A DNA stretch of 17,563 nt, taken from assembly GCA_027486525.1 (NCBI GenBank), contig JAIXOY010000112.1:1-17563 (forward strand). Direction: 5' to 3'. The stretch comes from Pseudomonadota bacterium (GTDB lineage: Bacteria > Bdellovibrionota > Bacteriovoracia > Bacteriovoracales > Bacteriovoracaceae). Both the position numbers and the translations under genes were made by a program. Numbering within the stretch: position 1 is the stretch's first letter; each line of letters starts with the position of its first letter. Of this stretch, positions 3,871 through 17,563 are shown in pieces. Below the pieces are notes generated by a model that was not told the origin of the DNA, searched no databases, and was given only the letters and a program-made list of their open reading frames with translations.

Positions 3871-4365
3871 TCAGGCCAAAAGTTGCTGGCACACATCCGC
3901 TAAGCTCGCAGGATCAAGCGGTTTATGGTTGGCGATGTTGATCTGGCGGCCCACAACAGTCATGCCAATGTAGGAAAACTGTAAGCGCATCATCACCAGG
4001 GCCTGCAAACCATCGCCCCCGGAGTGAGTGGCAATCGCCGCACGTTTTCCGTTGAAATGGACGCGCCAATCCTTGGCCGAAGTACTGCACCAAGCGATGA
4101 AGTTATTCAGCACCGGCGTAAGTCCCCCGTTGTACTCTGGAGAAACGAAGACGAAGCGATCAGCAGCGAGGGCCTCTTTGAAGGGTTCGATCGCCTGGGC
4201 GCCTGAGAGTTTGCCATGTTGCAAAGGTGAATAGAGGGGAAGATCGGCAGCGACGAGATCAAGCAAAGACACTCTGTGGCCGAGCGATTCGAGGTGCTCT
4301 TTGAAGGTCTGGGCCAACACGAGATTTTTTCCGTTACTACCGGCGACGACGCACACATGCTTCAT
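3871..4365 (-). CDS. NADPH-dependent FMN reductase family flavoprotein (flavodoxin-like fold NAD(P)H oxidoreductase)
   Basis: 164 aa, ATG 4363-4365 with an AGGAG Shine-Dalgarno (plus-strand ctcct 4372-4376) 6 nt upstream. N-terminal MKHVCVVAGSNGKN (flavodoxin-like phosphate-binding loop) and FVSPEYNGGLTPVLNNFIAW are typical of the SsuE/ArsH-like FMN-reductase family. Confidence 0.82.
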   Translation of the reverse strand: MKHVCVVAGSNGKNLVLAQTFKEHLESLGHRVSLLDLVAADLPLYSPLQHGKLSGAQAIEPFKEALAADRFVFVSPEYNGGLTPVLNNFIAWCSTSAKDWRVHFNGKRAAIATHSGGDGLQALVMMRLQFSYIGMTVVGRQINIANHKPLDPASLADVCQQLLA

Positions 4366-4552: not shown

Positions 4553-6580
4553 ATGGAGTTGGGTTCGGCCATGTTAATTGGCCTTTTGTTCATCGGTCTA
4601 TTGTTAGCCGTCTTTTTACTGACCCGTTTCTTAGTCAACGTGGGCTCCGACGAAATCGCCATCATGGAACGCCAATTCCTGGGCCAAGAGTTGGATGCCG
4701 GTAACGTTTTCGCCAAGGACGGACAGGTCGGCCTGCGTGCTGCCTTCTTATCCCCGGGCCTGCACTTCGTTTTGTGGCCCTTCACTCGCGTTGTCGACAA
4801 GCCACTCTTCCTCCAGATTGCGGCCGATGAGTTAGGTATCGTTGAAGCCACCGACGGAGCTGCTTTGCCCGCAGGACGAATCTTCGCCGATGATCCGGCC
4901 GGAGAAAGCCACAACAACTTCCAAGATCCGCTGGCGTTTTTGCAAGGTGGTGGCATCCGCGGAAAGCAACTGCGCTTCATCACCAACGGTACTTTTAAAG
5001 TTCACCCGCAGCTCTTCAAGGTCACCAAGATCAAGAAGACCTTCATTCCCCAAGGGAAGATCGGTGTCGTGACCGCAGCCGACGGGGCCTCACTGGAAGT
5101 GGGTCACCTGCTCGCGGTGAGCATTCCGGATCATGATAATTTCCAGAGCGCGGAGAAGTTCCTCAAGAACGGCGGCCAGAAGGGTCCGCAGATCGACTTC
5201 TTGCGCCCGGGTACCTACAACATCAACACCGAGATTTTTAAAGTGGAAGTCCGTGACGCTGTCATCATCACCGACAATGAAATCGGCATCGTCGATGCGC
5301 GTGACGGTCAACCCATGAAAACCGCAGAAGTCGTCGTGAGCACACCCGAGGGCCACAGCAATTTCCAAGACGGGCAGAAGTTTCTTGCGAACGGTGGGAA
5401 GCGCGGCCCGCAAGAAAGCATTCTGACTCCCGGTACCTACTACATCAATCCGTACCTCTTCTCCGTGGCGAAGCGGAAGCAGACGCAAGTGAACCAGGGT
5501 GAAGTCGCCGTCTTGATCTCGAACATCGGGAAAGATCCGGGCGAGTTCGTTCCGGAGAACGTCTCAGCGGCGGATAAGCTGGCCACACGCCACGTCGTAC
5601 CCAAGGGCTACCGCGGGATCCAGAACCAAGTGTTAGGTCCTGGCTCGTACAACATCAACCCCCTCGCCTACACGCCGATCATCATTCCGACCATCACGCG
5701 GTCAGTGGACTGGAGCGCCGGTGAAGGCAACAACAGCAGCTTCGATCCGTTCCAGGTGGTTTCCCACGATGGCTTCGAGATGCAAGTTGAGGTTCGCTGC
5801 CAGTATCGCATTCAGCCGGAGAACGCACCTTACGTTGTCCAGAAGATCAGCTCGATCGCCGAGCTCGAGAAGAACGTCATTCATCCGCAGATCGACGGTA
5901 TCTTTCGTGCCCAAGTGGCCCGCTCACCAGCGATTGCGTATCAGCAGAACCGCGCCGAAGAGCAGAAATCGGCCGAGGAAGCCGTTCGCGATGACTTGAC
6001 GAAATACCGCGTGGAAGTGGTCTCGGTCATGATCACCAACATCCATCTGCCGGAAGCGTTGATGAAAACCACGCAGCAAAAAAACTTGGCCGAGCAAGAG
6101 AAGTCGATGTTCGATGCGAAGAAAGATGCCGAGCAACGCCGGATCGAGTATGAAAAAACCAAAGCAGAAGCCGATTCGCAGTTGAGAATCATCACGGCGG
6201 AAGCGGGGATTAAGGTCGCACAACACGAATCACGGCAGATGGAAGAGCGCGCGAAAGGTGACTCGGCCCGGGTGCGGATGCTGGCCGAAGCGGATGCCAG
6301 CCGTACTAAACAGATGGGTGACGCTGAAGCCGGTGTGGTTCGGGCCATCGGGGAAGCGCAAGCCAAAGCCTACCGCGATCAAGTGGATGCCCTCACGGCG
6401 CAAGGTGTGACGACTGTTGAAGTCGTGAAAGCTATTTCAGCCGCCGGGCTTAAAATCACACCGGACATTCAGGTGGGTGGCAATGGGGGCGCAATGGACG
6501 GTGGTCTGGTGCAAGTTCTCCTTGGCAAGATGCTCATGGATAAACCAGCCGTCGTGCTTCCTCCACCGACAAATAGTTAG
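4553..6580 (+). CDS. flotillin / SPFH (band-7) family protein, YqiK-like, with an expanded N-terminal domain
   Basis: 675 aa. N-terminal TM helix (MLIGLLFIGLLLAVFLL). SPFH core (FEMQVEVRCQYRIQPENAPYVVQKI...VEVVSVMITNIHLPEAL). Long Ala/Glu/Gln/Lys-rich coiled-coil flotillin tail (AEQEKSMFDAKKDAEQRRIEYEKTKAEADSQLRIITAEAG...). Stop TAG 6578-6580. Confidence 0.85.
   Translation: MELGSAMLIGLLFIGLLLAVFLLTRFLVNVGSDEIAIMERQFLGQELDAGNVFAKDGQVGLRAAFLSPGLHFVLWPFTRVVDKPLFLQIAADELGIVEATDGAALPAGRIFADDPAGESHNNFQDPLAFLQGGGIRGKQLRFITNGTFKVHPQLFKVTKIKKTFIPQGKIGVVTAADGASLEVGHLLAVSIPDHDNFQSAEKFLKNGGQKGPQIDFLRPGTYNINTEIFKVEVRDAVIITDNEIGIVDARDGQPMKTAEVVVSTPEGHSNFQDGQKFLANGGKRGPQESILTPGTYYINPYLFSVAKRKQTQVNQGEVAVLISNIGKDPGEFVPENVSAADKLATRHVVPKGYRGIQNQVLGPGSYNINPLAYTPIIIPTITRSVDWSAGEGNNSSFDPFQVVSHDGFEMQVEVRCQYRIQPENAPYVVQKISSIAELEKNVIHPQIDGIFRAQVARSPAIAYQQNRAEEQKSAEEAVRDDLTKYRVEVVSVMITNIHLPEALMKTTQQKNLAEQEKSMFDAKKDAEQRRIEYEKTKAEADSQLRIITAEAGIKVAQHESRQMEERAKGDSARVRMLAEADASRTKQMGDAEAGVVRAIGEAQAKAYRDQVDALTAQGVTTVEVVKAISAAGLKITPDIQVGGNGGAMDGGLVQVLLGKMLMDKPAVVLPPPTNS
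4829..5707 (+). repeat. intragenic tandem amino-acid repeats (~75 aa x ~3.5) inside the flotillin gene
   Basis: Copies at about aa 93-175, 176-250, 251-325 and a partial copy at 326-385. They share the pattern DG..L..G....(10)H.NFQ....FL..GG..G.Q...L.PGTY.IN...F.V. Each resembles the genuine first SPFH segment at aa 40-90 (GGQK...INxNTxxxEV-like). Confidence 0.6.
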
Positions 6581-6588
6581 GCGTACGA

Positions 6589-6618
6589 GGCTCGGGTCAA
6601 GGTGAGAAGACCCGAGCC
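6589..6618. terminator. intrinsic terminator hairpin between convergent flotillin (+) and VTC (-) genes
   Basis: Perfect 10-bp inverted repeat ggctcgggtc / gacccgagcc (6589-6598, 6609-6618) with a 10-nt loop, followed on the + strand by attcttaaa. It sits 9 nt after the flotillin stop. The minus-side U-tract is poor, so it mainly serves the + strand. Confidence 0.6.
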
Positions 6619-6622
6619 ATTC

Positions 6623-7234
6623 TTAAACTGTCTCAAGAAGTTGCAAGCCGCGAACGTATTTCGAGAAGCGACCCAAACGCCAAGGAAGGCAGCGGATGAA
6701 CTCGTCACCGAGCTTGGCCGCTTCGAGCTTATATTTTATCTCCAACACGGCGACGTAGTCGAAGTCCTGCCGCCAAAGATTTCTTCCGGCCGGGGAAAAT
6801 TCTATTCGTGTATCGAGTGTTACTCGTAAACCCCAAGCAGGTGCGTGGTAGTACCGGCGTTCATACCGATTTTCCAGCACGGGATACATGAGACATTCAC
6901 CCAATAAAACACCGTGGCCTTCGCGCAAAGAAGCAATCGCTGCAGCAGGATCGTAGAAGCGCTTGTCCCCATGATCCCCTAACTTTCGTTTCTCCTCGAG
7001 TTGCTTCCAGGCTCCCCCATCGTAGGAGCGCAGACGCCACTTCACGCGCGCCTCGTGGCCCGCGGTGTGGGCATGAAAACAGGCGAGATCCGGCGAATCA
7101 AAATACGCGTTATGCACTCGACGTGCTGGATACGCCGTCACAAGGCCCATGGGATGAGCGAGGAGAATGTTCTCAATCTGCTGGAGATCGCCAGATCCGA
7201 GAGGAATCTTCTTTTCGAAACGCCAGTCACTCAT
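6623..7234 (-). CDS. VTC domain protein (polyphosphate-polymerase-type CYTH-like domain, PF09359-like), cytoplasmic
   Basis: 203 aa from ATG 7232-7234; I reject the longer 7303 start. Motifs match what I recall of bacterial VTC-domain proteins: RFEKKIPL (R.E.K), YFDSPD, ARVKWRLRSY, LEEKRK, GLRVTLDTRIEF, LEIKYK, and C-terminal RFSKYVRGL. The start overlaps the stop of the upstream gene (ATGA at 7231-7234). Confidence 0.8.
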   Translation of the reverse strand: MSDWRFEKKIPLGSGDLQQIENILLAHPMGLVTAYPARRVHNAYFDSPDLACFHAHTAGHEARVKWRLRSYDGGAWKQLEEKRKLGDHGDKRFYDPAAAIASLREGHGVLLGECLMYPVLENRYERRYYHAPAWGLRVTLDTRIEFSPAGRNLWRQDFDYVAVLEIKYKLEAAKLGDEFIRCLPWRLGRFSKYVRGLQLLETV

Positions 7235-7887
7235 AGCGACCACCCTTCTGGCCAGTGGCCCCAGATGCGCCACTCGTTTGTCTTGGGATTCCAAACCGCC
7301 CACGCCGTCTCGTCGAGAGGGGGCAGTTCTTTTTCATGCATCTGCGCAAGTGCTACGAGCAGAGGCAACCGCCGCGACTGCCGAGACACCTCGATGCCAG
7401 CTGCACCTTTCCGTGCGAGCGGCCCTTCTCCATTTTGCAGAGTCAGAGTGAAGGGATGAGCAAACAGTGCGTAGTCTCCGACACTCTTCCCATTCACGAT
7501 CAGCGCACCCTGCGCGAGCGGTGCTGGCGAAGGGGTACGCAGCAGGACAGCGGCCTCTAGGCTTTGCGTATCAACGAGGATCATTTCTCGCTGTTCAAAG
7601 CCCTGGTCCTCATCAACCTCTATCGCAACCGCTTTAAGCCCGGGCTGGCCCTGCGTCGGAAGTGTGCGCATTAAGACCCGCAGGCGGTTCCCTGCAAACT
7701 CGAGTTCACCCTTCACCTCTTGACTGCGCCACTGAGAGTTTGTCCGAAGCTTGATATCGTCAAAGAGCAAACGCTGAAGCGAACGATGCCCTAGAGAAAG
7801 CGCGAATGAGGGAGCCGACTTTCCTATCAAGAAAATTCCCAACCCCATCAGCACAACACAAAAGACCGCAGCGAAGAAAAAGCGCAT
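7231..7887 (-). CDS. hypothetical membrane-anchored protein (N-terminal TM/signal anchor, extracytoplasmic domain), unknown function
   Basis: 218 aa, ATG 7885-7887. MRFFFAAVFCVVLMGLGIFLIG is the hydrophobic anchor. No motif I recognise. The start overlaps the DUF4956 stop (TGATG) and the stop overlaps the VTC start (ATGA). Confidence 0.6.
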   Translation of the reverse strand: MRFFFAAVFCVVLMGLGIFLIGKSAPSFALSLGHRSLQRLLFDDIKLRTNSQWRSQEVKGELEFAGNRLRVLMRTLPTQGQPGLKAVAIEVDEDQGFEQREMILVDTQSLEAAVLLRTPSPAPLAQGALIVNGKSVGDYALFAHPFTLTLQNGEGPLARKGAAGIEVSRQSRRLPLLVALAQMHEKELPPLDETAWAVWNPKTNEWRIWGHWPEGWSL

Positions 7888-8555
7888 CAGGCCAAGTCTT
7901 GATATTCGGTGATGAGCATTTGAACTCCCGGCAACTTCTCTTTGAGTCCTTGGCGCATCTTCTCGAGATTTTCTGTCGAGGAGGTTTCTACCAAGAAGAC
8001 AGCTTCCCCCTCGGAGATGCGTTTGATTTTTACCCGCCGGGAATGGGTCGCAAGAACGGCCTCAAGTTCCGGCACGGAGAACTGAGCGAGCTTACTCAGA
8101 TGAACGTAGAGAGCTCCGGGACGACTTGCCCCGCCGCCACGCACTTTGAGGAGCGCATACACAAGAAGAATCACCACAAGACCGATGACGGTCACGGGCC
8201 GCTGATCGGCGCCCAGACCAAGGCCCACGGCGATGGAGAGAAACAGGAATGAAAGTTCTTCGGGGTCTTTGATCGCCGTTCGGAAACGGACGACGGAGAG
8301 CGCACCGACGAGACCCAGGGAAAGGGCGAGGGAGGACTTCACCACACTAATGACGAGCATGGTGGTCATGGTCAGAAGAAAAAAGTTTCCGGCGAAGAGT
8401 GTGCGATGAGACTGGCCTCGGCCCCAGCGGGAATAGAGCAGCGCCATCAGCCCGGCCAGCACGCCAGCGGTTCCCAAGTTGAGGACAAACTGCCCGACAT
8501 CGATCTGCGGGGCCTGGTTGGCGAGAAAATCTTCAAACGTGTTAACAGCACTCAT
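7887..8555 (-). CDS. DUF4956 domain-containing integral membrane protein
   Basis: 222 aa, ATG 8553-8555 with a GAGGAG Shine-Dalgarno 6 nt upstream. Contains the DUF4956 hallmark LSLGLVGALSVVRFRTAIKDPEELSFLFLSIAVGLGLG and several TM segments. Confidence 0.8.
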   Translation of the reverse strand: MSAVNTFEDFLANQAPQIDVGQFVLNLGTAGVLAGLMALLYSRWGRGQSHRTLFAGNFFLLTMTTMLVISVVKSSLALSLGLVGALSVVRFRTAIKDPEELSFLFLSIAVGLGLGADQRPVTVIGLVVILLVYALLKVRGGGASRPGALYVHLSKLAQFSVPELEAVLATHSRRVKIKRISEGEAVFLVETSSTENLEKMRQGLKEKLPGVQMLITEYQDLA

Positions 8556-8561
8556 GGATCA

Positions 8562-8567
8562 CTCCTC
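8562..8567 (-). promoter_or_regulatory. Shine-Dalgarno GAGGAG for the DUF4956 gene
   Basis: Plus-strand ctcctc, 6 nt upstream of ATG 8553-8555 on the minus strand. The only junction in the cluster with a spacer (24 nt) also has the strongest SD. Confidence 0.55.
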
Positions 8568-8579
8568 GTGATTGATAAA

Positions 8580-9470
8580 TCATGGCAAACGTAACCACTC
8601 CGCGGCGATCCAAAACAGACGCGCCCCTAAGAGAGTAAAAATAACGGATTTGAACTGGGGTGTGGCATTCGTGAAAGGGGCCTTCGACCACCGCACGCAC
8701 TGAATGAGGCCCCAGAAAAACAGGAAAGAGAAGATCACATAGAGGATCGCGGGCCCGTTGGAAAAGCGATCGAGTTGGTTTTCGTTCCACAGAATAGTCG
8801 CCACTCCTACGTAACCCCAAAAGAGCATGAGCGCGCCCACTCGGAGGGCATGAGTGGCACCCAGGAGACTCGAAAAATTTCGCGCCGTCGCATAAGTGTC
8901 ATGGGGCTTCAGCTGAAAGATCTGCGTGGCGGCATAGCTCCCGCCGACGGTGAGCGTAAACAGCCAGCCCATCATCCAAGTGCGCGCACTGGGCTCGAAG
9001 CCTGAGATGGTAGCCCCGAGGATGACTCCGATCACCCCACAGCCAGTCGCATCTAAGAAAAGATCGACGCCGCCAACTTCTTTACCGCGCCACTTGAGTC
9101 CGGGGACGCGGCCTGAATACGCATACGAGAAAAGCAAGGCGACAACCGCGCAGCCGAGGGGATAGGTGCCATAGAACGCCGCCGCCACACATCCCAGCAG
9201 CATGCAAGCAACACCGAAGTGGCCCAGCCACTTCGGACGCGGCGGGGGATTGTCTAAGAAGTTCAAGGGACCGGCATCGCGGTCGACGTGCGTATTGAGC
9301 GCGCAGGTGCCACCGAAGAGAAGAACGCTATAGATCAAGAAGAGCGCCAGCAGATCCGTCGGCCAGGCCGCTTTATTCGGATTGAGCGCATAGCCCGTTA
9401 ACACAAACACAAAGCTCGGGAGAAATGTCTTTGGACGCATGTGAATGAAATAAAATTTCAAATCTTTCAT
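8580..9470 (-). CDS. polytopic membrane protein, divergent UbiA-prenyltransferase-like
   Basis: 296 aa, ATG 9468-9470 overlapping the upstream stop (ATGA). 8-9 predicted TM segments. N-terminal HMRPKTFLPSFVFVLTGY (UbiA-like RP..T start), NTHVDRDAG in the first loop (degenerate NDxxDxxxD), and a later HDTYATARNFSSLLG (degenerate second motif). Family assignment is tentative; the catalytic Asp motifs look eroded. Confidence 0.5.
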   Translation of the reverse strand: MKDLKFYFIHMRPKTFLPSFVFVLTGYALNPNKAAWPTDLLALFLIYSVLLFGGTCALNTHVDRDAGPLNFLDNPPPRPKWLGHFGVACMLLGCVAAAFYGTYPLGCAVVALLFSYAYSGRVPGLKWRGKEVGGVDLFLDATGCGVIGVILGATISGFEPSARTWMMGWLFTLTVGGSYAATQIFQLKPHDTYATARNFSSLLGATHALRVGALMLFWGYVGVATILWNENQLDRFSNGPAILYVIFSFLFFWGLIQCVRWSKAPFTNATPQFKSVIFTLLGARLFWIAAEWLRLP

Positions 9471-10354
9471 CGTTTATCCTTCAAGAAATACTGGCGAGCA
9501 CGAAAGAATTTTGATTCCTGGCCAACCTTCATACCACGCTCACTCACCAACAACGACTCGAGTTTATTCAGAAGCAACGTTCCCATCTCGCGCGGGCGGT
9601 ACTTGTTTTCGATTTCCAGCTCTTTGATGAGGAATTCTTCTTTGCCACCACTGGCTTGAATGAAACGGGCCTCATCCCACGAACCTTCCATCAGCCAAAC
9701 CCATGATGGATTTTTACGAAATACGGCAGGCACCATCAGTTCGTTCTTCTCTGAGTCTCTCAGGAGCAAGAGCGGAGAAACGCGTTCGTTACGATCAATC
9801 AGAATGTGGTAGCGCTGACGATGAGAATAGCCAAGAACGACAGGCCCTAGGCCTTTGGTTTTTAACTGACGACGACGCAATTCTTGGAACGGAGCGAGGC
9901 TCGAACTTTCTTTGCGTGTGAGCCACTGGGAAAGAAGGGCACCATCGGCGGCACTCACTCCTCTCTGAGCGACGTACCTCTCAATGATGTCGACGATGCG
10001 CACACCTGCCACACTCTGCTCTTTGAGGTTGCGTTCCTCTTCTTCGATCCGTGCAGCTCCCGGTGCTTCCATCTCCGATTTAAGCTGGATGACATAGGCC
10101 GGTGGCTGGTTCCCTTTGCGCACTCTTCGGATGCGTAATCCGAGTCCGGCCTGAGTCAGAACACCTTCAGGAGAATCGAAGTAGAGGTCTTCGGCGAGGT
10201 AAACATCGTGAGGCCAAAAACGAAAATCCCCCAAGAGAAAAGTTTCCTGAGGCAGAGGCTGATCCGCGGGGACCACATACTTACGTTGCTCTTCTACCCG
10301 ATTGGTAGCCGCCAGCACATTGAAACTCAGGAGGAGAAGAAGGATTCTTACCAT
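9467..10354 (-). CDS. secreted VTC/CYTH-like domain protein (signal peptide + divergent polyphosphate-polymerase-type tunnel domain)
   Basis: 295 aa from ATG 10352-10354; I reject the longer 10387 start, which would overlap the upstream gene by 40 nt. Signal peptide MVRILLLLLSFNVLAA/TN. Then RVEEQRKYVV, LYFDSPEG, GLGLRIRRV and YVIQLKSE parallel the RFEKK / YFDSPD / WRLRSY / LEEKRK of the VTC protein at 6623-7234. C-terminal SKFFRARQYF parallels RFSKYVRG. Confidence 0.6.
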   Translation of the reverse strand: MVRILLLLLSFNVLAATNRVEEQRKYVVPADQPLPQETFLLGDFRFWPHDVYLAEDLYFDSPEGVLTQAGLGLRIRRVRKGNQPPAYVIQLKSEMEAPGAARIEEEERNLKEQSVAGVRIVDIIERYVAQRGVSAADGALLSQWLTRKESSSLAPFQELRRRQLKTKGLGPVVLGYSHRQRYHILIDRNERVSPLLLLRDSEKNELMVPAVFRKNPSWVWLMEGSWDEARFIQASGGKEEFLIKELEIENKYRPREMGTLLLNKLESLLVSERGMKVGQESKFFRARQYFLKDKR

Positions 10355-11856
10355 CCGTACCCCCGGAACCGGCCACGCGTGTGCCACAGTCCTGCGGGAT
10401 AGAGTGTGAGATCCGGCTCGCGCACGAGCTCTCCGTTCTTCACGACGTCACCGATGTTGAGTTGGCGATTAATCTGCCACGTGTGAGGGTCTGAAACCTG
10501 AAAGGCTCTGAGAATTTGTCGACGACGCTCGGCGAGTTTGTGGAAATACAGTTCGCGCACTTCTGCGGGCCATCCGGAGTGCGAGAGAATTTCTCGCAGA
10601 TCATCCGGACCTAAACGAGCAATCTGCTTGGCCATCCACGCAAGATCGCTCCACGTCGCCTGGCGCCAGGCTTCCGGGAGATGGTTCATGCGAGCGAGGA
10701 AACGAAGCTCTTTTCCATCGTCCTCTACCAGATCCCAACCCAACTCATTCACCAGGCCACCCTTGAGGTCGCGCGGGAACTTCTCAATGCGAACTCCCAG
10801 CGAAACACCCAAGTCACTATAACTGGCCTTCATACCTTCAGCTGTGAGAGTGAGCAACGTGTTGTCGGTCTTCGTGTCCCAGTTGCCGATCCACATCTCC
10901 GCAAGGAGAGCTCCGCGCACAGAACGCCTCGATTTATTTTGTGCGAGGTCCGGCATGAAAGGCCCGAGGCGCGTCTCGGAACTCGGCCTTGGCTCCAACG
11001 CGAGTCCTGTGAAGGTGAGATAGGTCTCTCCCTCCCTTCCACGCAGCAAGGGCTCAATGGCAATCATCTCATCCGTCACGGTGCTGACCTGCTGGATGAA
11101 GGGACTCAGATTTATTTTGTAGCTGTTGTAGATAAAATTCACGAGCTGCTGAACGGTGCGCTTCTGCTTAGCTTGGCGACCCAACAGCAAACGGAGCTCG
11201 CCGGTTCCGCGATGAAAAGGAAAATCCACGTTAAAACCGAGAGAGGCAAAGATCCTCGAGGCCACGGGGTCACTATGAATCTCATCACCCCACTTGATCA
11301 GCCACCGTTCGCCATTACGAAGATCATCGGCGTGAACCTTCGCGACACTGCCCTTGCCTTCTAACTTATCAAGTCGCAGCCAAGAAAAGTCCGGATCCAC
11401 GCCAGCTGCTTTCCACTGGCGCTCAAAGGCCTCAGACAACGGAGCAACTGGGCTTTTCCAAAACGCATCGCTCTCGGCAGGCCGGCCATCATCAGGTGCG
11501 CGATTGAACTTTAAAAGATACGGAGAAAGATCGTGGGTCAACCCCATCTTGAGAATGTCGAGCAGGCCCACGCCGGCTTCCACACGATGGCGATCAATGA
11601 AGGAGTGGTAGATCAGATCGAGATTGTCCCACGCCACGGGATTGGGAAAATTGCCAGCATCGAAGGCCCGTTCTTGTTGCTCGCAGGTATCGCGAACAAA
11701 CGAGAGCATCACTGGTTTGCGCTCTTGCGTGAGCTTGCGACCTTCGGCTTCCTTCACATCCGTGTTCGTGAGCACTTCACAACGTGACCGCGATTCTTCC
11801 AGCGTGAGCGCTTGGGCGCTCAAGCTGAGAAAGAATAATGGCCACAGTCGCTTCAT
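10348..11856 (-). CDS. secreted protein with protein-kinase-like (PKL/Hanks-like) catalytic core; not CotH-like
   Basis: 502 aa, ATG 11854-11856. Signal peptide MKRLWPLFFLSLSAQA. Gly-rich loop LEGKGSVAKV (aa ~165-175), Lys in WLIKW (K188), catalytic loop WIGNWDTKTDNTLL (D327-x-K329-x-x-N332, the HRDLKPEN spacing), and DLG at 348-350. The kinase core maps to about nt 10800-11370. Confidence 0.65.
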   Translation of the reverse strand: MKRLWPLFFLSLSAQALTLEESRSRCEVLTNTDVKEAEGRKLTQERKPVMLSFVRDTCEQQERAFDAGNFPNPVAWDNLDLIYHSFIDRHRVEAGVGLLDILKMGLTHDLSPYLLKFNRAPDDGRPAESDAFWKSPVAPLSEAFERQWKAAGVDPDFSWLRLDKLEGKGSVAKVHADDLRNGERWLIKWGDEIHSDPVASRIFASLGFNVDFPFHRGTGELRLLLGRQAKQKRTVQQLVNFIYNSYKINLSPFIQQVSTVTDEMIAIEPLLRGREGETYLTFTGLALEPRPSSETRLGPFMPDLAQNKSRRSVRGALLAEMWIGNWDTKTDNTLLTLTAEGMKASYSDLGVSLGVRIEKFPRDLKGGLVNELGWDLVEDDGKELRFLARMNHLPEAWRQATWSDLAWMAKQIARLGPDDLREILSHSGWPAEVRELYFHKLAERRRQILRAFQVSDPHTWQINRQLNIGDVVKNGELVREPDLTLYPAGLWHTRGRFRGYGW

Positions 11857-12365
11857 TACGCACGGGCCCCACGGTAGTCCATGATCTCGCGGTTACCGAT
11901 GTAGCTGTACCCGATGAAGATCAGCACGAAGGCCGCATGGATGGGCCACCCGAGTTCTGCGAAACCATCGTACTGACGAAAGAAGCCCCAGGCGAAGGTC
12001 ACCGCCGTACCACCGTGGATGCAAATCCACATGATCATGTGAATGATGGTTTCTCTTTCCGTGCACCGTGGAAGGTGCCAGTGGATCTCGTCCATGAATT
12101 CGTGGAGGGTCCGTGTGACCCAGCAGCCCAAGAAGAGAAACAATGCTTGTCCAGGCCACCAGGTCATCAGCAAGAGTGAGAGCATCAGTCCGTAGCTGGT
12201 GTAAAGAATCATCCGGTGAGTGCGCAGCTCTCCGTCCGTGATGTCCTTTTTCCAAATCGCTAGATGCGTTTTGTGATCGAGGTACCAGAAGATGCCGAAG
12301 AAGAATCCGAAGAAGAGCATCCCGTAAGCGAAATGCTGTGGAGGAATTGCATCAAGCCATGACAT
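11856..12365 (-). CDS. hypothetical polytopic membrane protein with conserved His clusters
   Basis: 169 aa, ATG 12363-12365 overlapping the upstream UbiA gene by 14 nt. Stop TAA overlaps the next start (TAATG). ~5 TM segments with His motifs LDHKTH, LHEFMDEIHWH and IIHMIMWICIHGG. No family I can name. Confidence 0.55.
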   Translation of the reverse strand: MSWLDAIPPQHFAYGMLFFGFFFGIFWYLDHKTHLAIWKKDITDGELRTHRMILYTSYGLMLSLLLMTWWPGQALFLFLGCWVTRTLHEFMDEIHWHLPRCTERETIIHMIMWICIHGGTAVTFAWGFFRQYDGFAELGWPIHAAFVLIFIGYSYIGNREIMDYRGARA

Positions 12366-13161
12366 AAAACACCATCCTCGAGATAAAGATTAGCCCGCAC
12401 GTTGCGAGATTCATGTATTGAGTTGCGTAGTGGCCCGGCTCGCCCCAGCGAAGCCATTCGAGGTTCGCGGCACGCCAGACGAGAACCGCGATCCACGCGG
12501 TTCCCCACGGCACGGGGCAAAGAAGCAAAAGCAGACCGCTCAGGAGATTCAGCGTGTGAAGAAGAGCGTAGGTCGTGCGCTCACCGAACACGAGCGGCAG
12601 CGTGCGAGTCCCGCTCAACCGATCCTCTTCGAGATCATCCAAATCCCGCAGGACACTTCCGGCCATCACCTGCAGCGCCACGAAGCCTGCGACGATGTTG
12701 ATGTAGGGAGATGAGGTGTCGCCGGCACCCAAGTAGACGAGCATCGCCCAGCCCACACCGATCCAGGCACTCTTAATTCCCGTCAGAGATTTAAGACGAA
12801 AAGTTCCCGTCGCCGTGGCGAAGGGATAGGAGTAGGACAAACCTAAAAAGAGAATCGTCAGCGAACACACAAGCGTCAGCGGGCCCGGACGCAACAGGGA
12901 GAGAACGAGGCCCGAAATGAGAAGGGGGAGGAGCTTGAGTCCGGCGCGTGACTTCAGGGCATCCCACGGATGTTGCTCATCGGTGAGTGAGTCCATGCCA
13001 TAGACAAAACCCACCAGAGAAAAAGTGATCCACACCACCGACCAACTGGCGGCGAGCTCAACGCTCACGAGACTAAATCCCGTCAGCACGATGGCCACGG
13101 CCGCGGCCACGAGGATCCAGATGGACTTACGTCTCCAGAGGAGAAAATGTGATGCGAGCAT
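12352..13161 (-). CDS. UbiA superfamily prenyltransferase (MenA-like aromatic prenyltransferase fold)
   Basis: 269 aa, first gene of the minus-strand cluster. The strong second Asp-rich motif RDLDDLEEDRLSGTRTLPLVFG matches the MenA/UbiA NDxxDxxxD...G.KTL.V..G signature. 8-9 TM segments. Confidence 0.75.
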   Translation of the reverse strand: MLASHFLLWRRKSIWILVAAAVAIVLTGFSLVSVELAASWSVVWITFSLVGFVYGMDSLTDEQHPWDALKSRAGLKLLPLLISGLVLSLLRPGPLTLVCSLTILFLGLSYSYPFATATGTFRLKSLTGIKSAWIGVGWAMLVYLGAGDTSSPYINIVAGFVALQVMAGSVLRDLDDLEEDRLSGTRTLPLVFGERTTYALLHTLNLLSGLLLLLCPVPWGTAWIAVLVWRAANLEWLRWGEPGHYATQYMNLATCGLIFISRMVFYVMA

Positions 13162-13306
13162 GCTCCATTGTATCGCTGTTGGGCGGAGCGCAGGAAGAAT
13201 TTATTGCCTAAAGTGCCAGAATCATGTCCTTTTTTACACGGTTTCCTTGTGTCTCATGTCCGTTTTGGGTAGCCTCACCCGCCAGTTCCAATCCTAGGAG
13301 ATCCCC
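13162..13306. promoter_or_regulatory. divergent promoter region between the UbiA-led minus operon and the S28 peptidase gene
   Basis: 145-nt gap. An AGGAG Shine-Dalgarno at 13296-13300 lies 6 nt before ATG 13307. The minus strand has TACAAT just upstream of the UbiA ATG. A T-run plus TTTACA sits at ~13225-13235 on the + strand. Confidence 0.35.
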
Positions 13307-14698
13307 ATGTTTTTGAAGCACTTCACTCTTGCGGCCCTCGTGGCGATCGTCTCGGGCCAGGCTTTTGCCTTGAACGAAGGTCTGCGCTACCACCTCAAAT
13401 CGCTGGAGCACGGCAAGGCCGCGGCCTATCGCTTTGATGGGACCTTACGCCTCACCGAAGACGGCTTCTTCCAGCAAAAACTCAGTCACGATGATCCCGG
13501 CTCGGCTTCCTTCGGTCAGCGCTACTTCATCGACTCAAAGTACGCCACTGCGGGCGAAACAGCTCCCGTGTTCTACATCATCTGCGGCGAGTGGAACTGC
13601 GACGGCACCGGCTCTTACTCTTCTGTTGAACGTCTCGCGAAAGAAGTCGGCGCGCACTTGGTGGCGCTCGAGCACCGCTACTACGGCGAAAGTTTGCCGT
13701 TCCGGAAGTTGACCACCGAACGTCTCTCGCACTTGAATCTTGATGCCGCGATCACGGACCTGGCCGTGTTCCAAAAACACGCCATGGAGACCATGAATCT
13801 CAAAGGCAAGTGGGTCGCTTTCGGTGGATCGTACGCAGGAACTCTTGCGGCGTTCTACCGTCTCAAGCATCCGGAACTCGTGACCGGCGCCCTCGCCTCT
13901 TCAGCACCTGTCTTGGTGAAAGCTGAGTTCAACGAATACGACGCACACGTGGCATCGGTGATCAACAAGAACACCTGCGGCGACATGGTTCGCGAAGCGG
14001 TCGCGGGCATCGAAGCTCGCATGGCGACCCGCGAAGGTACCCTCGCGGTGAAGGCACTCTTCAACTCAAGCGATGTGGTGAACGACGATGATTTCTTGTA
14101 CGTCGTTGCCGACATGCTCGCGGCCGCCGTCCAATACGGAAGACATACCAAGTTCTGCAACGATCTCGCTGCAAATCCAGATCGCGTCGCAGGTTACGCT
14201 CGCGCCGGCATCAACGTCTTAAGCTCCATGGGGACAACGCCGATTGAAATTTCCATGCAGGCCGCGGAAGCGAAAGACATCACACCGGCGAGCTACTTCC
14301 GTCAGTGGATGTGGCAGAGCTGTCTTGAGTTCGGTTGGTTTCAAGTCGCCAACGGCACAGGTGTCGATACGTCACGCTCAAGCCGCATCGATCTTCCGTA
14401 CCACGACCGCGTCTGTGAACGGCTCTACGGCCAAGGCACAACCGCTGATGGTTCCTTGAATGCCACTTGGTATGCTCCGCTCTTTAGCCCAAGCACGACC
14501 AACATCATCTTCACCAACGGCTCGAACGATCCGTGGTTGCGTCTCTCCGTGATCCCGGGAGTGCAGGCACCGAATCTTGATCTCTTGATGATCGATGGAG
14601 CTGCTCACTGTAATGACTTGAACGCTCTTTCTGCACTTCCGACAGTGCAAGCGGCGCAGGTTCGTTTCGGCGAAATTATTAAGGGCTGGTTGCTGTAG
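13307..14698 (+). CDS. secreted peptidase S28 family serine carboxypeptidase (Pro-X carboxypeptidase / DPP-II-like)
   Basis: 463 aa. Signal peptide MFLKHFTLAALVAIVSGQAFA. Catalytic Ser motif GGSYAGTLAAFYRLKHPEL (the GGSY.G.L.A..R.KYP of S28). Mid-region and C-terminal His region are consistent with S28. Stop TAG 14696-14698. Confidence 0.85.
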   Translation: MFLKHFTLAALVAIVSGQAFALNEGLRYHLKSLEHGKAAAYRFDGTLRLTEDGFFQQKLSHDDPGSASFGQRYFIDSKYATAGETAPVFYIICGEWNCDGTGSYSSVERLAKEVGAHLVALEHRYYGESLPFRKLTTERLSHLNLDAAITDLAVFQKHAMETMNLKGKWVAFGGSYAGTLAAFYRLKHPELVTGALASSAPVLVKAEFNEYDAHVASVINKNTCGDMVREAVAGIEARMATREGTLAVKALFNSSDVVNDDDFLYVVADMLAAAVQYGRHTKFCNDLAANPDRVAGYARAGINVLSSMGTTPIEISMQAAEAKDITPASYFRQWMWQSCLEFGWFQVANGTGVDTSRSSRIDLPYHDRVCERLYGQGTTADGSLNATWYAPLFSPSTTNIIFTNGSNDPWLRLSVIPGVQAPNLDLLMIDGAAHCNDLNALSALPTVQAAQVRFGEIIKGWLL

Positions 14699-16232
14699 GA
14701 AGAGTTCCGAGCCAGCTCTCCGGCTGGTCGCAATAAGCCGGACGTTGCGCACACGCATTGTCGCCGAGATCGCTGATCGAGTAGTTCACGCTGAAGCGCG
14801 CACACTCATTGTATTTTTTTACGGCATCCGGCGTGCTCTCGATCTGGCAGGGCCCGTTGATGATCCGCGCGAAGTGCGCCGGATGCAGCATGCTTCGTCC
14901 CATGGGTTTGTTACGGTAGTGCACCGTCGTGCCTTCGACGCGAAACTGCCCCTTCGGCACGCGGAAATCCACGGGCGTCATTCGCTGTGTGTGGAACGGG
15001 CACGCGTAGACCTTCCGTTGCGGCGAACTGATCGCCACAGCTTCCGGGCGCAGGATGTCGAGGTAATGCCGGCACGCGAGGTCCCCTTCCGGACACGAAC
15101 AGCTGAGCGTCCTGCGGCTCACACTTGTCGTCGTGCCGTTCGGCTCAAGCACCGGTTTCAAAAAGGACTGAACCTCGATTTTGTCGACAGTGTTCACGAG
15201 CAGCGTGTTGAACGGTGCATCGACAGACGTTGGTAACGGCACGAACCCGTTGTCCTTCTCGACGCAGTAGATGTCCTTGAGAGTCAGCGGCTGCGGAGGC
15301 CCCGCGACGACGAGTGGAGGCGCCCCCGCGATCGCCGGGATGACCGGTACCGTGGGAATCACCACGGGCGAGACCTCCGGATAACGCAGCGGCAGTCCCA
15401 CGCTCAACGTCGAGATGTTGCCGATCTGGAAGTACTTCTTGCGCATGAGCATCTCGCGCACAACCGGGTTCGGGCTCCGGAGGTGTGCCGTGAAGTCCGA
15501 TTCCACGGGGATCTCGCAGCGGCCGACCTCGCCGACGGAGTCGTCGAAGGCGATATGCATGCCATCGCCCATCATCGAATCGCCGGGGCCCATCGCCCGG
15601 CACTCGCTGGCGTTCACGTCTTCGCCGTTGTCTTTGTACTCGTCACACAGACCCGCGAAGTGCAGCAGCTCGTGGACGATGGTGGCGCAGTTGAAGTCCG
15701 AAGAATACTTCTGCGCATCCCCCCGTTCTCCCGGCTTGACGATCGTGATCTCGATCTCCGGTGGCTTCACGGAACCCATGGCCTGCGCCTGAGTAGGTGA
15801 CACAGCAATGAGGTTCAGCTGCTCTCCCCCGGGTCCTCGCAGGCCAGGCCTCGCAGCGTCGAGGCAACTGCGCACTCGATCCAGCATCGCTGCCGGTGTC
15901 ACCGTCGCGTCGGGGTTAGCGGTGAACTTGAGGTTGAACACCATCTCGTACTGCTTTTCACCGAGGTACTTCAGAGTGCCCTTGTGATCGGTCGGTAACT
16001 TGTAGTTGTCCGATCGGATGTTGCTATGGCTCACGTTTTCTTGCCGATGGGCCGACCGCACCATGCTCCCGCGGGTCACGTCGAAGACGCGAGCGTCGCC
16101 CGGCTTCGTGAGCGGATTACAGCGGTTGATCTCGTCGATGTCGGCGATCCAGTCGGTGGGGCTGATGGAATAGTTCGTCGAGCACAGCGGCTGCGCGTGG
16201 GCGAGCCCGAGGAAGAAGAGGAGAAATGTCAT
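14679..16232 (-). CDS. secreted Cys-rich zinc metalloprotease, snapalysin (M7)-like HExxHxxGxxD active site (paralog 1)
   Basis: 517 aa from ATG 16230-16232, which overlaps the upstream paralog stop (ATGA); I reject the 16388 start. Signal peptide MTFLLFFLGLAHA/QP. FNCATIVHELLHFAGLCDEY (nt ~15637-15678) is followed by a DSMMGDG Met-turn. I count 19 Cys. The C-terminal domain is shared with paralog 2 (LHPAHF). The 3' end overlaps the S28 gene by 20 nt (convergent). Confidence 0.7.
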   Translation of the reverse strand: MTFLLFFLGLAHAQPLCSTNYSISPTDWIADIDEINRCNPLTKPGDARVFDVTRGSMVRSAHRQENVSHSNIRSDNYKLPTDHKGTLKYLGEKQYEMVFNLKFTANPDATVTPAAMLDRVRSCLDAARPGLRGPGGEQLNLIAVSPTQAQAMGSVKPPEIEITIVKPGERGDAQKYSSDFNCATIVHELLHFAGLCDEYKDNGEDVNASECRAMGPGDSMMGDGMHIAFDDSVGEVGRCEIPVESDFTAHLRSPNPVVREMLMRKKYFQIGNISTLSVGLPLRYPEVSPVVIPTVPVIPAIAGAPPLVVAGPPQPLTLKDIYCVEKDNGFVPLPTSVDAPFNTLLVNTVDKIEVQSFLKPVLEPNGTTTSVSRRTLSCSCPEGDLACRHYLDILRPEAVAISSPQRKVYACPFHTQRMTPVDFRVPKGQFRVEGTTVHYRNKPMGRSMLHPAHFARIINGPCQIESTPDAVKKYNECARFSVNYSISDLGDNACAQRPAYCDQPESWLGTLPTATSP

Positions 16233-17563
16233 GGCCGCACCGCCGGTGCGCCGCCGAGGAACTTCACTGGATCGCGGCACTCCGCTGGCACGTTCGAGCA
16301 GTCGACGGCCGTGTCGGCGGGCTGCGAGTGGCGGTAGGCGAACTGCGCGCAGCGGTCGTAGAGCGTGGTGCGATCGATCGCACGGCACGAACCGCGCAAC
16401 ACGCGCATGAAGTGCGCGGGATGGAGCAAGCTACGGTTGAGGCGCGGGGGATTGCGGAACTCGACGAAGCCGGCGCTCACGCGCTCGTCCCGCACGGTTC
16501 CCTGGTTCATGCCCACGTCGCTGGCGCCGGCGTCCTGCGAACTCGTGGGACAGCGGAAGCGGCGGTTGCTCGCTTGGTAGCCTTCGTTCATCTTCGCGCG
16601 CACGCCGGTGATACTCGCCTGGCACTGCGAGTTGCCCGGGGGGCACTTGCAGATCAAGCGGTACTGCGACGGCAGTGTTTGGTAGCGTGTGACGTTGCGG
16701 CCAGCGAAGTCCATCTCGAAGCCGCGAGGTATATCCACGAAGCGCGCTCCGTAGGTCTGCAGCAAAGGCCTCTGGGCCGTCGCCGCAAACGTCGTGACCG
16801 TGCACCAATTTTTCTCAAACGCGGACTTGTCCGGCAGCGTCTTGTAGATGTCGTTGGCGTCCGGCGACATCTCCGCGGCGAGGTGGCCCGCCGGAGCGTT
16901 CAGCCACTTCGAGCCGGGGTTCAGGACGCAGCGCTTGGCGAGGCCGACGGCGTCGTCGTAGGTGCCCTGCATGTCCACGCTCATGATCGAATCTTCGTGC
17001 ACGATCACGCGACAGGCCGCCGCGTTCTGGATCTCCGTGGGATTGCCCTCGGGGTACTCGTCGCAGAGGCCAGCGTGGTGGAGGAATTCGTGGATGACCG
17101 TGGCGCACGAGAAATCCATCGAGAAATTGTTCGCGTTCCCGCGGCCACTCGTCTTGACGTTGATCGCAATGAGCGGGGGCTTCGGCGACTCACCGCTGTC
17201 ACCCCGGAGCGTGAGCCGCATCTGGTGGCCGTCGGGGCCGGTCATGGCGGGCGATGCTTGCGCAAAGCACTGCTCGACCCGTGTGCGCATTTCGGCGACC
17301 TGCGCCTCGGTGGTGTCGACGGCAGTGAACTTTGCGTTGAATTCGACGTTCCAGGATTTATCACCTGTGCGCCGAAGGACGAACTGACTGTTGTTGGGGA
17401 TCTTGTTCTCCGTGTGGCCAAGCTGGTCGTGGAGCACGGCCTCGCCGACGTCGGGGATCGCGCACGCCGAGATGTCGCTAAGACTTTGTAGACTCGAACT
17501 GATGCCCGAGTTGAGCAGGCCCTGCAACGGGAGTTCTGCGTCGAGACACGTCTCGCAGTCCGC
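16229..17563 (-). CDS. secreted Cys-rich snapalysin-like zinc metalloprotease (paralog 2), 5' end beyond window
   Basis: The frame stays open to nt 17563. The codon at 17525-17527 that the ORF track prints as M is TTG, not a credible start. FSCATVIHEFLHHAGLCDEY (nt ~17055-17096). Aligns with paralog 1 throughout (NVEFNAKFTA vs MVFNLKFTA; SLLHPAHFMRV vs SMLHPAHFARI). Very high GC3. Confidence 0.7.
   Translation of the reverse strand, partial: ADCETCLDAELPLQGLLNSGISSSLQSLSDISACAIPDVGEAVLHDQLGHTENKIPNNSQFVLRRTGDKSWNVEFNAKFTAVDTTEAQVAEMRTRVEQCFAQASPAMTGPDGHQMRLTLRGDSGESPKPPLIAINVKTSGRGNANNFSMDFSCATVIHEFLHHAGLCDEYPEGNPTEIQNAAACRVIVHEDSIMSVDMQGTYDDAVGLAKRCVLNPGSKWLNAPAGHLAAEMSPDANDIYKTLPDKSAFEKNWCTVTTFAATAQRPLLQTYGARFVDIPRGFEMDFAGRNVTRYQTLPSQYRLICKCPPGNSQCQASITGVRAKMNEGYQASNRRFRCPTSSQDAGASDVGMNQGTVRDERVSAGFVEFRNPPRLNRSLLHPAHFMRVLRGSCRAIDRTTLYDRCAQFAYRHSQPADTAVDCSNVPAECRDPVKFLGGAPAVRP

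Follow-up and report, generated by a model that had tools for sequence, protein, structure and literature searches.

The stretch of DNA considered here, referred to as the window, is the whole 17,563 nt of contig JAIXOY010000112.1 (assembly GCA_027486525.1), from a member of the Bacteriovoracaceae (Bdellovibrionota). Its central part carries eight genes on the minus strand, g1 to g8 in reading order (Table 1): a UbiA-type prenyltransferase (g1, UbiA-1), a His-rich membrane protein (g2), an exported protein with a predicted kinase fold (g3), a probable exported triphosphate tunnel metalloenzyme (TTM) of the CYTH-like kind (g4), a divergent UbiA relative (g5, UbiA-2), a DUF4956 membrane protein (g6), a signal-anchored or exported protein (g7) and a cytoplasmic VTC-domain TTM protein (g8). 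An earlier note, a first reading of the bare sequence, had proposed this block, and all eight open reading frames lie where it placed them. The eight genes are a single conserved functional unit; the account given here of what they might do rests throughout on sequence, predicted structure and gene context in metagenome assemblies.

The operon-like packing described in the earlier note holds, with six overlaps (14, 1, 7, 4, 1 and 4 nt) and one spacer. Reading along the minus strand, g1 and g2 overlap by 14 nt (12352-12365); g2 and g3 share one base of a TAATG at 11856; g3 and g4 meet in ATGGTAA, with the ATG of g4 at 10354-10352 and the TAA of g3 at 10350-10348, an overlap of 7 nt, so that the ‘1-nt gap at 10351’ reported before is simply the base separating that start from that stop; g4 and g5 overlap by 4 nt (ATGA, 9467-9470); the sole spacer, 24 nt (8556-8579), precedes g6 and contains a GAGGAG Shine-Dalgarno sequence; g6 and g7 overlap by 1 nt (TGATG at 7887), and g7 and g8 by 4 nt (ATGA, 7231-7234). 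GTG starts at 10387 for g4 and 7303 for g8, offered by the list of reading frames, are unlikely: orthologues begin at the ATGs 10354 and 7234 (MV... and MS.W). Within the eight-gene block, promoter-like and terminator-like sites are no more numerous than in shuffled controls.

The eight window proteins were mapped onto 14 g3 loci from species genomes and 27 metagenome loci (numbered with an L below). The order UbiA-1, g2, g3, g4, UbiA-2, DUF4956, g7, VTC is invariant in each complete Bdellovibrionota locus, and is kept in ~15 Bdellovibrionota metagenome loci as identity falls from 90% to ~42% and the flanks differ; the neighbourhood conservation that had been proposed as a check is thus found in related genomes. 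The closest named relative is L006, a Halobacteriovoraceae metagenome-assembled genome (MAG), with 91-95% amino-acid identity for neighbouring genes. At L001, where g3 is 57% identical, the junctions are almost the same (14, 1, 7, 4, a 12-nt spacer, 1, 4). Compared with the orthologous locus L027, the ratio of nonsynonymous to synonymous substitution rates (dN/dS) is 0.04-0.10 for all eight genes where dS can be estimated, synonymous sites being near saturation (g1, 0.065; g7, 0.097); for g4 they are saturated (proportions of differing synonymous and nonsynonymous sites, pS 0.80 and pN 0.12). These substitution patterns indicate purifying selection on all eight genes. The recurrence of the junction pattern in L001, the invariant order and the purifying selection together put the packing far beyond chance.

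Table 1. Features of the window and of related loci
Feature	Locus	Position	Strand	Remarks
g1, UbiA-1	window	12352..13161	-	269 aa; integral-membrane prenyltransferase, assigned from sequence
g2, His-rich five-helix membrane protein	window	11856..12365	-	169 aa
g3, exported protein, predicted atypical kinase fold	window	10348..11856	-	502 aa
g4, probable exported TTM/CYTH-like protein	window	9467..10354	-	295 aa from ATG 10354
g5, UbiA-2, divergent UbiA-superfamily membrane protein	window	8580..9470	-	296 aa
g6, DUF4956 membrane protein	window	7887..8555	-	222 aa
g7, signal-anchored or exported protein	window	7231..7887	-	218 aa
g8, cytoplasmic VTC-domain TTM protein	window	6623..7234	-	203 aa from ATG 7234
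Candidate bidirectional terminator hairpin	window	6589-6618		10-bp GC-rich inverted repeat
Intergenic region shared with divergent S28 peptidase gene	window	13162..13306		145 nt
FMN reductase	window	3871-4365	-	
FMN reductase	L001	15268-15762		
FMN reductase	L003	17466-17960		
FMN reductase	L008	7842-8333		
FMN reductase	L027	18128-18616		
SPFH/Band-7 protein	window	4553-6580	+	675 aa
S28 serine carboxypeptidase	window	13307-14698	+	secreted
Cys-rich HExxH paralogue	window	14679-16388	-	
Cys-rich HExxH paralogue	window	16229-17527	-	
p492 family	L012	17573-19111	-	
p492 family	L002	19176-20657	-	
p492 family	L038	8204-9682	+	
p492 family	L055	10082-10838	-	
Second exported CYTH-like paralogue	L003	20600-21496	-	
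Second exported CYTH-like paralogue	L007	20558-21454	-	
Second exported CYTH-like paralogue	L008	10327-11100	-	
Beta-barrel-like protein	L044	14065-14745	+	
Beta-barrel-like protein	L017	8772-9392	-	
Beta-barrel-like protein	L042	1820-2416	+	
Beta-barrel-like protein	L041	2025-2600	+	
PPK1	L053	6982-9021	-	

One part of the unit is built round the VTC and DUF4956 genes, a pair with precedent elsewhere. Both families, named in the earlier note, are present, and the two genes are kept together across the Bdellovibrionota loci, with g7 alone between them in every one. Pfam VTC (PF09359) matches g8 far above threshold (67.2 bits against a cut-off of 23, E=2.1e-18), and a profile of nine g8 orthologues finds the catalytic domain of yeast Vtc4 (3g3q, E=1.3e-10), as well as Vtc2 and Vtc3. 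The invariant positions (R5-x-E7-x-K9, R63/K65/R67/R69/Y71, E80/K82/K84, Y124/R126, R137/T139/D141, E165/K167 and S191/K192/Y193) align to the conserved strand motifs of Vtc4; we take them to correspond to the lining of the triphosphate tunnel in that protein's structure. By sequence, then, g8 is solidly assigned as a homologue of the catalytic domain of the Vtc4 polyphosphate polymerase. The assignment of g6 to DUF4956 is, on the same kind of evidence, equally solid (PF16316, 55.3 bits against a cut-off of 30.6, E=8.4e-15); the alignment has a multi-pass transmembrane region with an invariant RFRT motif, followed by a C-terminal soluble domain. DUF4956 proteins are described as four transmembrane segments with an ACT-like domain (bioRxiv 10.1101/2024.04.20.589940). 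The third member, g7, has an N-terminal hydrophobic segment (residues 3-21) and a Trp-rich C-terminus and evolves fast; a Pfam scan of it gave nothing significant, and its two orthologue groups are related to each other (hhalign probability 91%, E=1e-6).

A second part consists of UbiA-1, g2 and UbiA-2: wherever UbiA-1 occurs, a member of the g2 family is paired with it, and UbiA-2 is usually there as well. The earlier note had counted two UbiA-family proteins. Superfamily kinship stands for both of them; canonical membership stands for g1 and fails for g5. Sequence assigns g1 solidly (PF01040, 47.8 bits against a cut-off of 34.2, E=1.5e-12): it carries both conserved Asp-rich motifs (YGMDSLTDE and RDLDDLEEDRxxGTRTLP), and its best PDB relative is the DGGGP synthase 6m31, a weak match (E=1.8e-4). 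The same Pfam family scores g5 under its cut-off (27.6 bits, E=2.2e-6), orthologues of g5 have precomputed PF01040 matches, and DGGGP synthase is again a weak PDB relative (E=3e-4). The first motif, N-x3-D-x-D, is kept, and Y-x-A-T-Q-I-F-Q-L replaces the second Asp-rich motif in all orthologues; to judge from these features g5 is an atypical relative within the superfamily, not a canonical UbiA member.

The His-rich membrane protein singled out in the earlier note, g2, represents a five-helix family and is the best conserved of the eight, with 58-93% identity to the window protein in Bdellovibrionota loci. Seventeen positions are invariant (D30, H31, H34, D44, E46, H50, R51, R85, E89, D92, E93, H97, R100, C101, E103, E105 and H109), and H88 is present in at least 90% of sequences. 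In a confident five-helix model (predicted local distance difference test, pLDDT, 92) helices 1-4 carry the invariant His, Asp, Glu and Arg residues at their ends, all on a single K/R-rich membrane face. This face is probably cytoplasmic, and the invariant cluster would form a metal or phosphate site there. Searches of Pfam and the PDB with g2 returned no family and no specific structural relative.

The third part, the pair g3-g4, is predicted to be exported. The earlier note had described a signal-peptide protein with the catalytic motifs of a protein kinase, and g3 answers to this: a conserved signal peptide (MKRLWPLFFLSLSAQA), invariant Cys26 and Cys58, an N-terminal three-helix domain, and then a kinase core in which K188, E192, the catalytic loop D327-x-K329-x-x-N332 and a DFG-like D348-L-G350 are invariant. 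An AlphaFold2 model (pLDDT 85; predicted template modelling score, pTM, 0.88) gives the core its closest structural matches, by the figures tabulated for the comparison, in CtkA (3akj, 11.8), Fam20C (5yh0/4kqa, 11.6), actin-fragmin kinase (1cja, 11.5) and PI4KIIa (4pla, 11.0), with a HipA-like protein (10.2), CotH (5jda, 10.0) and MavQ (7m7a, 9.5) lower. As modelled, g3 is a bilobal kinase fold with the conserved Lys, Glu, D-x-K-x-x-N and DFG-like Asp, and a putative phosphotransferase. The protein-kinase-like clan match expected of it did not appear: Pfam and NCBIfam scans gave nothing at E<=0.1, CotH (PF08757) included, which bears out the statement that the locus has no CotH; and its profile, run against PDB sequences, found only a chance match (E=0.77), CotH not being among the hits. 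An exhaustive hidden Markov model (HMM) search collected 820 cluster representatives that share the g3 core, with roughly two dozen full-length relatives; none of nine sampled members of this superfamily has a convincing Pfam match. Among distant relatives of the core, P0045, P0048 and P0050 are stand-alone genes in uninformative contexts, and the gene for P0037 lies at a contig end.

Directly after g3, even where the pair stands alone, comes g4. It has a conserved signal peptide (MVRILLLLLSFNVLAA), an invariant EEQRKY immediately behind it, and an invariant C-terminal E-x-E-x-E-N-K-Y (ELEIENKY in g4); orthologues give weak or faint CYTH matches. To judge from its sequence, g4 is probably a TTM protein destined for export, one whose N-terminal motif is unusual. 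Of the ‘second exported VTC-like protein’ announced before, a signal peptide and a probable TTM/CYTH likeness are borne out, and the expectation that PF09359 would match twice is only marginally so, g4 lying below threshold (15.9 bits against 23, E=0.0099). A further exported CYTH-like protein, a g4 paralogue with 32-34% identity to it, is encoded 5-6 kb downstream of the operon in several relatives (L003, L007 and L008).

Who carries these genes suggests one way to understand an exported kinase-fold protein. Close relatives of g3 number ~20 among 5.8 billion proteins, the few with a named source being Bdellovibrionales or Bacteriovoracaceae MAGs, and among 185,579 species genomes the 14 g3 loci fall into 13 Bdellovibrionota MAGs and one Flavobacteriia MAG. 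Nearly all full-length loci thus come from MAGs of predatory Bdellovibrionota, and one could suppose that g3 and g4 are secreted into ATP-containing prey as a toxin-like kinase and triphosphatase, with the membrane proteins serving export or self-protection. Two of the structural matches are effectors, CtkA (the best match) a secreted kinase and MavQ from Legionella, and secreted peptidases flank the operon. This reading is very improbable all the same: orthologous g3-g4 pairs occur in Bacteroidota-like contigs beside biosynthetic genes, the unit has no secretion-system genes, and the tight coupling to the UbiA, VTC and DUF4956 genes is left unexplained.

Many Bdellovibrionota loci hold a longer set, with three added genes: an MMPL transporter, located between UbiA-2 and DUF4956; a flavin-dependent halogenase, which overlaps the start of UbiA-1 or follows VTC; and p492, an N-terminally anchored protein of 490-510 aa encoded by a convergent gene and matching nothing in Pfam. 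This last accompanies the MMPL-containing versions both in Bdellovibrionota and in the L038 lineage described below. The halogenase has the motifs WxWxIP and GDAAAFVDP, and PltA, ChlB4 and CmlS are the PDB entries closest to it; these features rule out the possibility that the ‘Trp_halogenase’ matches are a geranylgeranyl reductase. None of the three genes is present at the window locus, whose eight-gene version is a reduced form of a 10-11-gene set; the fuller ancestral version had MMPL, halogenase and p492.

A distant lineage, L038 (GC 38%, g2 44% identical), has most of the set in another order: g4, halogenase, VTC (Pfam 1e-27), a short DUF4956-like protein, UbiA-1, g2, UbiA-2, MMPL and p492. 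The short DUF4956-like protein has the RFRT motif and its gene directly adjoins VTC; a g3 gene may lie beyond the contig end. A permuted set of this kind indicates that the link of VTC/DUF4956 with lipid genes is recurrent, not a one-off fusion.

The unit is built from three sub-modules that are also found separately: A, UbiA-1, g2 and UbiA-2; B, g3 and g4, interleaved within A in the eight-gene unit; and C, VTC, DUF4956 and g7. UbiA-1/g2/UbiA-2 stand alone in L019 and L054 and with g3 in L018; UbiA-1/g2 occur with g3/g4 in L039 and with MMPL in L046-L053; g3/g4 stand alone in L025. In one closely related Bacteroidota lineage (L053, also L046, L047 and L048) a PPK1 gene lies upstream of UbiA-1/g2 and divergent from them, with MMPL convergent; it directly adjoins them in L053, L048 and L046 and is ~3 kb off in L047. 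This hints at a second link between the lipid module and polyphosphate.

The separate occurrence of the parts admits a second perspective, in which independent modules merely share a transcript: a VTC/DUF4956 polyphosphate module, serving in storage, in the handling of cations or, through its ACT-like domain, in regulation, would be co-located with a lipid module with no mechanistic hand-off between them. Each does occur alone elsewhere, VTC/DUF4956 is found in unrelated contexts such as pel operons, and operons for membrane functions are frequently mixed. We judge this unlikely. The combination recurs, permuted, in the distant L038 lineage; the set has been kept through 42-90% divergence despite changing flanks; the genes are interleaved and translationally overlapping; and PPK1, a different polyphosphate enzyme, beside UbiA-1/g2 adds weak evidence in the same direction.

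What the lipid module makes is suggested by its company outside the Bdellovibrionota. In the Bacteroidota-like L017, L042 and L044, UbiA-1/g2 and g3/g4 lie among genes for ketosynthase (KS), acyl carrier protein (ACP), ketoreductase (KR), FabA-type dehydratase (DH) and AMP-ligase, together with an O-methyltransferase, halogenases, a hydrolase and a putative outer-membrane barrel; these neighbourhoods resemble envelope pigment or lipid clusters. Beside g2 or g3 in Bacteroidota-like loci there is also a signal-peptide protein of ~200 aa with an outer-membrane beta-barrel-like pattern, for which Pfam scans in L044 and L017 gave no match. The earlier note had suggested that the UbiA proteins possibly supply a prenyl-lipid carrier for a phosphorylated polymer. 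The context of module A (the PltA-type halogenase, MMPL and the clusters of type-II polyketide synthase (PKS) or fatty-acid synthase (FAS) kind) suggests otherwise: the product would be an aromatic lipid of a specialised kind, prenylated and in many cases halogenated, not a generic carrier.

Taken further, the same context yields a third perspective: that the whole unit belongs to specialised metabolism, making an aromatic lipid or pigment of the envelope that is prenylated and often halogenated, with no polyphosphate exported. The TTM and kinase-fold proteins would then be tailoring or handling enzymes (for prenyl di- or triphosphates or nucleotide-activated intermediates, for example) or periplasmic lipid-binding or transfer factors. 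The placing of UbiA-1/g2 with g3/g4 inside the KS/ACP/KR/DH/AMP-ligase/O-methyltransferase/halogenase clusters of L017 and L044 fits well, as do the PltA/ChlB4/CmlS type of the halogenase, the recurrence of MMPL, the lipid kinases PI4KII and MavQ among the best structural matches of g3, and the occurrence of g3-g4 and of module A with no VTC adjacent. It fits less well that g8 retains Vtc4-type motifs at all invariant positions; that g8 has DUF4956 as its partner, exactly the pairing seen in the CotH sets, where lipid genes are absent; that the signal peptides of g3 and g4 would take both proteins to a place where nucleotide donors are not expected; and that no Bdellovibrionota locus has PKS genes: KS, ACP, KR and DH genes are absent from the window and from all these loci, occurring only beside the L017 and L044 homologues. 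On balance we hold this account possible yet doubtful.

The reading we prefer couples the lipid pathway to polyphosphate: a prenyl-lipid product on the one hand, and exported polyphosphate that feeds phosphotransfer in the periplasm on the other. From the evidence assembled here we would give it a probability of about 0.4; a weaker claim, that an envelope-lipid pathway is functionally coupled to the phosphate chemistry of the TTM and kinase proteins, is likely to be right. That is, UbiA-1, g2 and UbiA-2 would prenylate and, through g2, further modify a membrane-bound, probably aromatic, substrate at the cytoplasmic face, giving a specialised envelope lipid; where halogenase and MMPL genes are present, this lipid would be halogenated and exported by MMPL; VTC would polymerise polyphosphate from ATP in the cytoplasm, and DUF4956, with g7, would thread the chain across the inner membrane; in the periplasm, which is free of ATP, the g4 TTM would bind, trim or process the polyphosphate end; finally, g3 would take the phosphoanhydride as donor and transfer phosphate to the exported lipid or to some other target in the envelope, acting as a functional stand-in for the CotH of other VTC/DUF4956 gene sets. 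The translocation step is proposed by analogy with the yeast synthase-translocase: yeast VTC couples polyphosphate synthesis to membrane translocation. In favour of the polyphosphate-coupled model are the conservation of the unit amid differing flanks, with matching junction overlaps in L001 and purifying selection throughout; its permuted recurrence in L038 and the interleaving of module B with A; the match of g8 to Vtc4; the conserved signal peptides of g3 and g4, together with the Cys pair of g3; the TTM motifs of g4; the invariant Arg residues (RFRT) in the membrane region of DUF4956; and the precedent of CotH associated with VTC and DUF4956; for the lipid role of module A there are the Asp motifs of UbiA-1, the recurrent MMPL, the PltA/CmlS-type halogenase and the PKS/FAS-like neighbours in L017 and L044.

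Several observations pull the other way. A profile of g6 run against the PDB for kinship to the Vtc channel found no sequence relative and no Vtc chain. The exported TTM protein falls just below the Pfam CYTH threshold (PF01928, 22.8 bits against 23.2, E=9e-5), its best PDB matches, the YgiF triphosphatase and CyaB-type CYTH, are not significant (E ~0.3), and its N-terminal motif reads E-x-Q-x-K against the canonical E-x-E-x-K. UbiA-2 has lost the second Asp-rich motif, which is normally needed for diphosphate binding; and both g1 and g5 score far below every NCBIfam equivalog cut-off, so that a substrate is not assignable to either. The window version has no MMPL, which leaves the lipid's route to the periplasm there unexplained. 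Both the g3-g4 pair and module A are seen with no VTC/DUF4956 in the DNA examined (L039, L025, L044, L019 and L054): either these genes can do without the coupling, or those genomes encode VTC at another place, and its absence near some homologues may reflect short contigs. We know of no kinase of the g3-type fold that uses polyphosphate as donor. No cultured carrier was found, every carrier being an uncultured MAG. The full proposition, that VTC and DUF4956 (with g7) are a polyphosphate synthase-translocon and that a periplasmic TTM and new atypical kinases use polyphosphate in place of ATP on a prenylated lipid, is a long shot.

The surroundings of the operon vary more than the operon does. 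A hairpin 4 bases past the g8 stop, in the 42-nt gap that separates g8 from a convergent gene for an SPFH/Band-7 protein, folds at -21.6 kcal/mol (z -5.3 against shuffles) and would serve as terminator; it has no U-tract on the minus strand. From gene layout alone, the 145 nt between g1 and the divergent S28 peptidase gene are the only available place for the operon promoter, and no consensus sigma-70 match was found in them. An Rfam scan of the window found no RNA family. The SPFH protein has a long, coiled-coil-like, Ala/Glu/Lys-rich C-terminus; its gene is inserted between the operon and the gene for an NADPH-dependent FMN reductase and does not occupy the corresponding position in L001. 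The reductase itself lies 0-3 kb downstream of VTC, here and at every related eight-gene locus. An enzyme of this kind is required by flavin halogenases; the eight-gene loci that have it contain no halogenase, and this neighbourhood could be plain synteny. On the other side, the gene for the secreted S28 serine carboxypeptidase is divergent from the operon, a layout that L001, L006 and L027 share. Beyond it are two tandem Cys-rich paralogues with an HExxH motif (IVHELLHFAGLCDEY and VIHEFLHHAGLCDEY), 38% identical over their core and in no Pfam family, in a region with GC of 0.62-0.65 against ~0.55 elsewhere; possibly these are secreted metalloproteases that were acquired. Metallophosphoesterase genes near the clusters in the window and in L012 were considered as a shared component and set aside, since they share the fold and no further homology.

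Three protein families with no Pfam counterpart found come out of this analysis: the kinase-like superfamily of g3 (~820 cluster representatives), the five-helix His/Asp/Glu family to which g2 belongs, and p492. A conserved lipid module, UbiA-1/g2/UbiA-2, emerges from the locus as well; in several phyla it is linked to halogenation and to export by MMPL. The function of bacterial VTC-domain proteins, of DUF4956 and of the secreted CotH-type kinases associated with them is still undemonstrated, and kinase action without ATP outside the cytoplasm is a puzzle; the locus offers a testable hypothesis, that exported polyphosphate is the phosphoryl donor for extracytoplasmic phosphorylation. If true, a polyphosphate-fed kinase would be the first ATP-independent extracytoplasmic kinase system and would explain the Gram-positive CotH-VTC-DUF4956 sets.

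Comparison with known systems places the locus near several and inside few. Pigment clusters of the flexirubin, aryl-polyene and xanthomonadin type, which belong to the envelope, come with an MMPL exporter and a halogenase. The likeness to them lies in the PKS-type neighbours of L017 and L044 and in the MMPL and halogenase of the Bdellovibrionota versions; the window and all Bdellovibrionota loci lack PKS/FAS genes and so stand outside that group, and the literature search found no paper with UbiA, TTM and kinase-fold genes as parts of those pathways. Within the UbiA superfamily (DGGGP synthase 6m31, UbiA/MenA-type enzymes), g1 has the fold signature and both Asp motifs, and g5 the first motif only. 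Structurally, g3 approaches the PI3/4K-HipA-Fam20-CotH group, from which it is set apart by 8-17% sequence identity, the lack of any profile-level match and an N-terminal three-helix domain of its own. The yeast VTC complex (3g3q, 7ytj, 8i6v), with the catalytic TTM of Vtc4 and a transmembrane channel, has a homologue in g8, which is always encoded near a multi-pass membrane protein; but Pfam finds neither SPX nor a VTC-type transmembrane domain in any of the eight proteins, g8 is a soluble protein of 203 aa, and DUF4956 has no detectable similarity to Vtc1/2/3/4, so that the locus does not belong to that complex and translocation here is suggested by analogy.

The nearest relative is a recurrent, uncharacterised accessory set of CotH, a polyphosphate polymerase (VTC) and DUF4956 beside the pel operons of streptococci, clostridia and bifidobacteria (bioRxiv 10.1101/768473; 10.1101/2024.04.20.589940); the earlier note's statement that CotH frequently joins the VTC/DUF4956 pair elsewhere agrees with these papers. 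Its remark that no described system has this gene content also stands: a literature search for the eight-gene combination found no description. Like that set, the window combines a cytoplasmic VTC protein, a DUF4956 membrane protein and an exported atypical kinase-fold protein. It differs in lacking pel and DUF4832 genes and in having g3, unrelated in sequence, in place of CotH, which puts it outside the set; in its extra exported TTM, two UbiA proteins, His-rich family and g7, to which relatives add MMPL, halogenase and p492; and in its host, Gram-negative here as against Gram-positive, where exported proteins would be periplasmic. The locus is an independent second case in which VTC/DUF4956 is joined by an exported kinase-fold protein, this time of a different, undescribed family, and this strengthens the case for a functional association between VTC/DUF4956 and such kinases. 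It is of a known but uncharacterised kind, VTC/DUF4956 with an exported atypical kinase, extended here by an exported TTM and a new lipid module.

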